IMG/VR virus record: IMGVR_UViG_3300035698_026482
Span: 118,841 to 182,840 of that record
Strand: one strand, 5' to 3'
Origin: a virus
Length of the DNA stretch: 64,000 bases
Shown: positions 55,296-55,983 of the stretch, one piece after another
Numbering within the stretch: position 1 is the first letter of the stretch
Layout of the letters: each line of letters opens with the position of its first letter
The notes under the pieces: generated by a model
Seen by the model: the letters and a program-made list of their open reading frames with translations, nothing else
What the model was told of the DNA's origin: nothing
Databases searched by the model: none
Translations under genes and position numbers: made by a program

Positions 55296-55983
55296 TCAGC
55301 TTAAAATCTCTTTAAATTTGCCCCTCGAATAATCCTTGAAACGCATAGTTTTGCCGTTTCGATGATTTGTCACACGATCATTTTGGGTTTGAATAGTTCG
55401 GATTTTATCACCACGCATGCCAGATCCCACCTGTCGTCTACGCGTGCCTATTCGCTCCTTGTGCAGGCGGTCTTGCTCCATTTGCAACAGTCGAGCCCGC
55501 AAGATCCGCATAGCCTCGTCTTTATTCATTGATTGTGAGCGCCCGCCGTCGTGACGGATTTGGATGCCAGAAGGTTTATGCGTTAATCTGATACATGTGT
55601 CTGTCATGTTCCTGTGTTGCCCTCCTGGGCCGGAACCTCTGGTGGCCTGTATATCCACATCTTCATCTCGAATCTTCACACGAGCCTCTGAAGGCTCCTG
55701 AAGAATTGCTACAGTAACTGTGCTTGTGTGGGTCCGCCCACGCTTTTCTGTGGGAGGCACACGCTGCCAACGATGACCACCTGCCTCTTGCTCAAACTTT
55801 TTATATGCGCCCTTTCCTGATGCACGTAAAAGTATAAACCCAACCCGTCTTTCTAGAATTGTGAGGTTAAAGACACTCCTGGGTCGCGTACTTTCTGTAG
55901 ATTTCGTATTGATCAACGATCAATAGCTTAGAATCTGCGCCGCCTTCGGCTGCGCGTATTTCGATTAGGACTGTGTTTTCCAT
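55296..55983 (-). CDS. RF1-type peptide chain release factor lacking domain 1, expressed via +1 programmed frameshift (~228 aa)
   Basis: Frame 0 55983-55870 (MENTVLIEIRAAEGGADSKL...ECL), TAA at 55867-69; +1 frame has QRVPPTEKRGRTHTS (PxT) and SGPGGQ. Confidence 0.88.
55866..55880 (-). promoter_or_regulatory. RF2-like +1 frameshift cassette
   Basis: AGGAG-TGT-CTT-TAA-C versus E. coli prfB AGGGGG-TAT-CTT-TGA-C. Confidence 0.85.

Follow-up and report, generated by a model that had tools for sequence, protein, structure and literature searches.

An uncultured jumbo phage from salt-lake metagenomes carries a release-factor gene whose first reading frame closes at UAA after 38 codons and whose remainder lies in the +1 frame. 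The locus thus raises the question of whether the gene is broken or gated by a programmed frameshift, and, if gated, what a gate built on UAA would report. The source is an IMG/VR virus record of 182,840 bp (CheckV completeness 53%), and we analyzed its last 64 kb, hereafter called the window. As the initial annotation had assumed, the gene belongs to a phage record, where it is the only gene with an RF-1 domain in the 182,840 bp. The coordinates of the gene and of its neighbors are collected in Table 1.

Table 1. Features of the release-factor locus and its surroundings (positions in the window)
Feature	Position	Strand	Details
ORF1, frame 0	55870..55983	-	ATG 55983-55981 and 37 codons, MENTVLIEIRAAEGGADSKLLIVDQYEIYRKYATQECL
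Frameshift cassette AGGAG-TGT-CTT-TAA-C	55866..55880	-	SD-like tract AGGAG 55880-55876; 3-nt spacer TGT 55875-55873; slippery CUU (CTT) 55872-55870; in-frame UAA (TAA) 55869-55867; C 55866
ORF2, +1 frame	55296..55868	-	AAC (Asn39), 190 codons, TGA 55298-55296
PxT-type stop-codon recognition tripeptide Pro-Pro-Thr	55749..55757	-	CCT CCC ACA, inside HRWQRVPPTEKRGRTHTS
GGQ, peptidyl-tRNA hydrolysis motif	55617..55625	-	GGA GGG CAA
GC-rich 16-bp hairpin, then AUUAUUU	56016..56052	-	-29.5 kcal/mol, z = -6.0
Rnl2-like RNA ligase gene, directly upstream	56065..57099	-	TIGR02307 35.8 bits (below cut-off); PF09414 57.5 bits
Array of 17 tRNA genes, upstream	57132..63325	-	none a suppressor; two tRNA-Asn(GUU), 59898-59974 and 62924-62999
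RtcB RNA ligase, full-length	50194..51432	-	PF01139, 449 bits; 3.9 kb downstream, other ORFs between
UvdE UV-damage endonuclease, downstream	47159-48064	-	219 bits

Bacterial prfB, the gene for RF2, is autoregulated by a +1 programmed frameshift at SD-N3-CUU-UGA-C, which was reportedly described by Craigen and Caskey in 1986, has been surveyed across genomes (PMC12421855) and has been reviewed (PMC5009743). The initial annotation had proposed a gene split by such a signal, and every part of it was found on the minus strand: the 38 codons, the cassette, and the PPT and GGQ motifs in the +1 frame. ORF1 (MENTV...YATQECL) ends in ACC CAG GAG TGT CTT TAA C and accounts for the first strand of RF domain 2 and for its helix alpha-5, including a GG-x-D tip aligned with G116/E119 of T. 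thermophilus RF1; ORF2 supplies the remainder of domain 2, domain 3 (GGQ) and domain 4. Consistently, Pfam placed PCRF positions 99-132 on ORF1, and PCRF 154-194 together with the RF-1 domain on ORF2. The cassette matched that of prfB element for element, with an SD-like tract, a 3-nt spacer, CUU, an in-frame stop, C as a weak stop context and a +1 step into the main ORF after a short ORF1. The pattern GGAGNNNCTTTRA occurred once in the 64-kb window, compared with an average of 0.19 in shuffles, and because 17 of 100 shuffles held at least one match, the motif by itself is weak evidence. RNA structure at the shift site was not significant (z = -1.6).

We joined the two frames with a four-base step (TAAC read as N), and the resulting protein, P0121, has 228 aa and a predicted tryptic junction peptide YATQECLNLTILER. 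P0121 matched the NCBIfam prfA model in one stretch (positions 112-342 of 361) with 220.5 bits (cut-off 423), up from 190 bits with the C-terminal piece alone, compared with 128 bits for prfB (TIGR00020; cut-off 370) and 82.4 bits for prfH (TIGR03072; model positions 1-198 of 200, cut-off 166.65). It also aligned as a single stretch with residues 105-321 of T. thermophilus RF1 and 109-337 of E. coli RF1, without a gap at the junction, and the uninterrupted relatives are colinear across the shift site. An AlphaFold2 model built with a 64-sequence alignment reached a pLDDT of 90.9 (96-97 around the junction), and its top Foldseek match was ribosome-bound RF1 (TM 0.92, 36-38% identity), compared with 26-28% identity for RF2 and a TM of 0.66 for PrfH. 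Among the PDB matches of the C-terminal piece, PrfH chains scored 45 bits and RF1 146 bits. ArfB combines a GGQ domain with a basic C-terminal tail and has no codon-recognition domain; P0121 gave just a local 33-bit match to it at the GGQ region (cut-off 100) and possesses domains 2 and 4, and an ArfB identity was thus ruled out.

The residues of P0121 that face the stop codon are RF1-like (G14, D17, Q, PPT, E, H, T). The RF1 residues that reportedly read the stop codon (Laurberg et al. 2008), namely the Gly at the tip of helix alpha-5, Gln, the threonine of PxT, His and Thr, are all kept. Differences from canonical RF1 decoding are E119 to D family-wide, I192 to T in the window, and the tripeptide PPT, which is found throughout the family and lies in an RVPPTE motif kept in all relatives displayed. 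G120, G121 and Q122 are invariant in the family alignment A1, and the window protein has every invariant family residue. Initiation within the +1 frame, as for the 206-aa TTG ORF, would give a product without the alpha-5 element. P0121 shares with canonical RF1 (prfA) the PCRF and RF-1 domains, a PxT-type tripeptide, GGQ, the Gln/His/Thr residues and the fold of domains 2-3-4, but lacks domain 1 (~105 residues) and stays below the NCBIfam prfA cut-off. These results indicate that the window gene encodes a class-I release factor of the RF1 type without domain 1, in agreement with both earlier assignments: the type is given by the ranking of prfA over prfB and prfH and by the fold, and the missing domain by alignments whose first matched positions are 112 in the prfA model and residue 105 in T. 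thermophilus RF1, at the boundary of domains 1 and 2. From its decoding residues, the product probably reads UAA, although the loss of domain 1 may alter how such a factor acts on the ribosome.

Relatives were collected with back-translated pattern scans, which yielded 74 viral, 80 metagenomic and 66 genome-derived loci; after removal of identical proteins, mis-parsed loci and canonical-RF1 loci, 178 non-redundant genes were left, from uncultured phages, metagenomes, and myxobacterial and betaproteobacterial genomes. All of them encode ~216-236 aa with the same start, so the absence of domain 1 is a family trait. In tblastn searches, 149 of the 155 viral and metagenome loci had the N-terminal piece immediately before the C-terminal one, either in frame 0 or at exactly +1. 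The offset between the pieces was 0 or +1 among homologs, and +1 wherever CTT-stop intervened; the sole +2 offset belongs to the N. pusilla copy (L183), which looks broken. A +1 shift at the window's codon was present in 129 of the 178 genes, a +1 shift at CTT-TGA near codon 46 in six, and a +1 shift at CTT-TAG or CTT-TGA near codon 53 in five, while 30 genes had one or two in-frame TGAs restricted to that same stretch and eight were uninterrupted. The first 55 codons of the family alignment thus hold three recoding hot spots (~38, 46 and 53), each with a CTT-stop +1 shift in some relatives and an in-frame TGA in others, and no internal stop was seen beyond this stretch. The Trp of HRWQRV is an ordinary sense codon in all relatives displayed. 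At low-GC loci, the neighboring ORFs were free of in-frame TGA and used TGG, a count that covers the flanking ORFs alone. Coding density under codes 11, 4 and 15 was uninformative as a recoding test of the relatives, because any removed stop lengthens random ORFs, especially at high GC.

Gene callers had been expected to truncate such genes, and the database relatives are indeed mostly C-terminal pieces of 170-227 aa, some of them named 'peptide chain release factor 1'. Annotation that splits or truncates these genes therefore hides the N-terminal helix that reads the stop codon. The nearest database protein to the window's factor was P0001 (63% identical). No member of the subfamily was found among INPHARED phage records. 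The best matches there, at most 41% identical and not split, resemble full-length RF1 or host DNA deposited as phage. A DNA-level search of the locus in phage records returned just one 64-nt match at chance level.

Alignment of the homologs revealed that the cassette is conserved together with the shift. At the column of the window's Leu38, CTT was present in 128 of the 129 shifting relatives, and 115 of the 129 carry an SD-like tract directly before it; both were nearly absent from the other classes: CTT in 0/8 and the tract in 1/8 uninterrupted genes, 2/30 and 1/30 of the in-frame-TGA genes, and 1/11 and 0/11 of the genes shifting elsewhere. The spacer was 3 nt long in 28 of 30 viral relatives, and the base after the stop was C in 26 of 39. 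The SD nucleotides are kept, while the dipeptide encoded there varies (RR, RE, LE, RG and KE, with QE in the window). The prfB signal is defined by the same pattern (PMC12421855), which indicates that selection acts on the cassette as a recoding signal rather than as protein sequence. One shifting relative (L138) has TTT TAG after AGGAGG-TCG in place of CTT; a rare UUU-U variant is known from a small minority of prfB genes (PMC5009743).

These comparisons bear directly on whether the 1-nt offset is a recent indel or an artefact and the gene a pseudogene. The window comes from one contig assembled from a metagenome, few family members have a UAA cassette, and read support is only 3-4x contig depth, all of which would suit such an error. 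Against it, the offset falls at the codon where 129 relatives shift, with the full SD-N3-CTT-stop-C; CTT-TAA stands at the same position in three other relatives (L077, L091 and L092); and all invariant family residues are intact with no further stop. We also examined Logan contigs from two other salt-lake metagenome runs of different studies, X3 (55761-55938) and X4 (55851-56087), which span the shift site with 0 gaps and 0 mismatches at a depth of 3-4x, one of the runs possibly being the source sample. An indel at the site was therefore absent from these contigs, which agree with the window base for base, and the comparative evidence is a stronger argument against error than they are. An assembly error or a broken gene is already close to refuted, and we regard it as extremely improbable. 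The +1 shift at CUU-UAA-C that the initial annotation called for is thus matched by a shift at the same codon in 129 of 178 relatives. No RNA run is listed among the public runs that contain the stretch.

The course of events at the cassette can be proposed from the prfB model. A ribosome starting at the ATG at 55983 would read 38 codons and then pause, its P site holding peptidyl-tRNA-Leu on CUU and its A site facing UAA-C. If a release factor bound first, a presumably inactive 38-aa fragment (the first strand and helix of domain 2) would be released. If no release factor arrived in time, the tRNA would re-pair from CUU to UUU (+1), and, as in prfB, this step would be aided by the 16S anti-SD pairing with the AGGAG tract that lies 3 nt upstream; after the slip, AAC would be read as Asn39, and the +1 frame would give the complete factor. 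For prfB it is established that tRNA-Leu in the P site moves from CUU to UUU as long as the stop in the A site awaits a release factor, and that SD:anti-SD pairing across a 3-nt spacer drives the slip (PMC5009743). SD sequences are in use in the phage, with a core upstream of at least 24% of its long ORFs compared with a background of 5.8%, and CTT is its commonest Leu codon. By analogy with prfB, we infer that the shift would take place on the ribosome by the same mechanism, at a rate following release-factor activity, and regulation by termination activity would follow from that mechanism. Because the shift competes with release-factor binding, output should rise when termination at UAA-C is slow.

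We then compared the stop codon that forms the gate across the family. UAA is read by both RF1 and RF2, and UGA is not expected to be read by an RF1-type factor. In the 129 cassettes at the window's site, the stop was TGA in 83, TAG in 42 and TAA in four (the window, L077, L091 and L092), so that TAA made up 4/129 of cassette stops compared with 64/129 of the terminal stops of the same genes (Fisher p = 4.6e-19); in low-GC shifting members, too, the cassette stop is TGA or TAG. A maximum-likelihood tree implied at least 31 changes of stop identity and placed the four TAA genes on separate branches beside TGA and TAG genes. Close relatives with identical upstream context also differ in their stop (L170 TGA, L172 TAG), and the window's GGAGTGTCTTTAA is one transition away from GGAGTGTCTTTAG (L078-L080) and from GGAGTGTCTTTGA (L034, L038). 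Since TGA and TAG differ at two positions and TGG abolishes the stop, TAA is the sole single-step intermediate that keeps the gate. These results show that the UAA gate is a rare, disfavored form and suggest that it is probably the one-step bridge between the common UGA and UAG forms; on the most fitting interpretation, it is an intermediate that is tolerated, lies one mutation from either form and would have a lower or less specific output. It would be tolerated only briefly because, being read by both host factors, it would terminate too well or report too unspecifically, and the window's UAA cassette may shift poorly. The UAA gate is thus probably a transitional state and not a purpose-built sensor of total termination, and the proposal of the initial annotation that the phage would make its factor only on a fall in total termination activity stays a hypothesis.

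The product probably reads UAA, since the RF1 decoding residues are kept, and a negative feedback loop would then close. Such self-feedback is plausible for the window's gene, and possible there only because the gate is UAA; it cannot be the general logic of the family, because most gates (83/129) are UGA, which RF1-type products would leave unread. The same stop-codon data also bear on a rival arrangement, in which a real frameshift acts as a fixed attenuator and not as a sensor: it would hold a factor that does harm in excess at a low and roughly constant yield, any stop beside CUU with an SD would serve, and the choice of stop would be nearly neutral. The frequent flips of stop identity, even between relatives with identical upstream context, would fit this arrangement, as would the toxicity of RF2 overproduction in B. 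subtilis (PMC12421855). However, neutrality leaves the strong avoidance of TAA unexplained, even in low-GC loci with a terminal TAA, and a stop-dependent shift responds mechanistically to release-factor occupancy, as established for prfB (PMC5009743). We therefore consider a fixed attenuator unlikely. A prfB-style +1 shift that gives the complete factor, with output following termination at UAA-C and feedback by the product as a plausible addition, is the reading we favor, and we hold it to be fairly probable.

We next considered the surroundings of the gene, which bring a role in RNA repair into play. The hairpin in Table 1 lies 33 nt upstream of the release-factor ATG, just past the ligase stop, and is likely an intrinsic terminator or a processing or stability element; a promoter and terminator consensus scan around the gene returned nothing above shuffle expectation and missed this strong hairpin. 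AAC, the first codon after the +1 shift, is an Asn codon, and one might speculate that the Asn-tRNA supply from the two tRNA-Asn(GUU) genes could favor the shifted frame. PrfH (RFH) is an RtcB2-linked rescue factor for damaged ribosomes (PMC1586002, PMC6514570; PDB 9mor, 7sa4). Rather than being a general terminator, the window's factor could in the same way free ribosomes jammed by nuclease attack on tRNA or rRNA, working with the phage's RtcB and Rnl2-type ligases and its tRNA set; the UAA gate would then read host termination alone, with no self-feedback. The architecture without domain 1 is PrfH-like (~200-230 aa with a GGQ domain, and a prfH model covered almost end to end), RNA ligases lie on both sides of the gene in the window with the tRNA array adjacent, and tRNA genes were present within 3 kb at 66 of the 102 longer loci. 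The protein is nevertheless much nearer to RF1 (220 vs 82 bits, TM 0.92 vs 0.66) and retains the RF1 residues for stop-codon reading. As to a conserved ligase partner, neither RtcB nor an Rnl2-like ligase was found in the 2.5-3 kb flanks of any of the 154 homologous loci, and the copy of Nannocystis punicea (L194) is flanked by FemAB-like and Clp ATPase genes, not phage genes. The likeness to PrfH drawn in the initial annotation therefore holds for the architecture, but not for the sequence, the recognition residues or the ligase partnership. PrfH identity itself was ruled out (82.4 bits against a cut-off of 166.65, TM 0.66, no RtcB operon), and the PrfH studies PMC1586002 and PMC6514570 report no frameshift in prfH. 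A rescue factor tied to RNA repair seems to us quite improbable.

The family is also carried by cultured bacteria. The short factor is a chromosomal gene in cultured Myxococcota (L194 of Nannocystis punicea, L175, L178, L184, L198 and L207), and the bacterial isolates that carry it include several Nannocystis species, Minicystis rosea, Pyxidicoccus fallax, Thiobacillus denitrificans and others, most of them with the same cassette. Nannocystis punicea has five RF-1-domain genes, including the short factor and two full-length factors. Three genes have a single in-frame TGA (GGC TGA or GCC TGA) and no frame change (L209, on the Cupriavidus sp. plasmid pTMH.W2_2, and L212 and L215, from gamma- and betaproteobacterial MAGs). 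These taxa are not known for stop-codon recoding, and the in-frame TGA suggests either gating by UGA read-through or gene decay.

In a low-GC phage clade (L039-L057, L064, L065 and L075), an amber-suppressor-type tRNA (CUA) lies 1-3 kb from the release-factor gene, which in this clade has two in-frame TGAs or CTT-TAG at codon 53; such a tRNA was likewise found near the gene at L084, L086 and L143. TAG-recoded phages are usually pictured as carrying RF2, and an RF1-type factor beside a UAG suppressor is hard to reconcile with this. Recoded phages have been described with standard-coded RF1 or RF2 inside a code-change module, with no mention of a frameshift (bioRxiv 10.1101/2021.08.26.457843). 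The window shares with them a phage-borne class-I release factor near tRNA genes, but its phage looks standard-coded over the 182.8-kb record, which holds no suppressor tRNA, is covered to 85% by standard-code ORFs of at least 100 aa, and uses TAA 75, TGA 39 and TAG 25 times as a stop. Another viral release factor that needs recoding, by frameshift and read-through, is reportedly the eRF1-type gene of Mimivirus and Megavirus (PMC3521657, cited in PMC5009743), a eukaryote-type factor with eukaryote-type signals from an unrelated protein family.

In both prfB and the short RF1-type family, SD and CTT are lost in the non-shifting relatives and TAA is a rare minority stop (1.4% in prfB, 3% in the family); prfB cassettes hold TGA in 98.6%, TAA in 1.4% and TAG in 0 of 8,164 (PMC12421855). 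In contrast to prfB, the window gene is RF1-type (tripeptide PPT, compared with SPF in RF2), and its site lies in domain 2 at codon 38, whereas the prfB site lies at about codon 26 in domain 1, so the positions are not homologous. The family also takes TAG freely (42/129), its UGA or UAG gate need not match the product's own specificity, and its shift is interchangeable with an in-frame UGA, at three different codons. Programmed frameshifting is known for prfB and not for prfA (PMC12421855), the RF1 family has been described as being without such a mechanism (PMC1586002), and neither a read-through substitute for the RF2 frameshift nor an RF1/UAG counterpart was known (PMC5009743). In the literature that we searched, neither a frameshift-gated RF1-type factor nor the short RF1-type family was found to be described.

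In textbooks, the prfB frameshift stands for a translation factor that senses its own activity. The family contradicts three statements about it, namely that it has no RF1 counterpart (PMC12421855, PMC1586002, PMC5009743), that its cassettes take no TAG, and that read-through does not replace it. To this the window adds the UAA form and evidence of its rarity and disfavor, and the UAA form is the link through which a cassette can pass from UGA to UAG, or back, by single mutations. Tentatively, the family could represent a third class of termination factors in bacteria and phages, so far undescribed and wired to termination failure, with the UAA gate as a bridge state that reports total capacity. 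If that were true, synthesis would run through a +1 shift or read-through at an internal stop at the three hot spots, the gate would evolve between UGA, reporting RF2, and UAG, reporting RF1, and the window's gate would report total termination capacity including the product's own activity. The product would in that case serve as a back-up terminator or clear ribosomes, and its synthesis would set in once infection had depleted or disabled the release factors of the host. Should the inferred gating hold, these genes would be natural switches responsive to RF1, RF2 or total termination, and would hint at a way in which termination is monitored or backed up in large phages and some bacteria.
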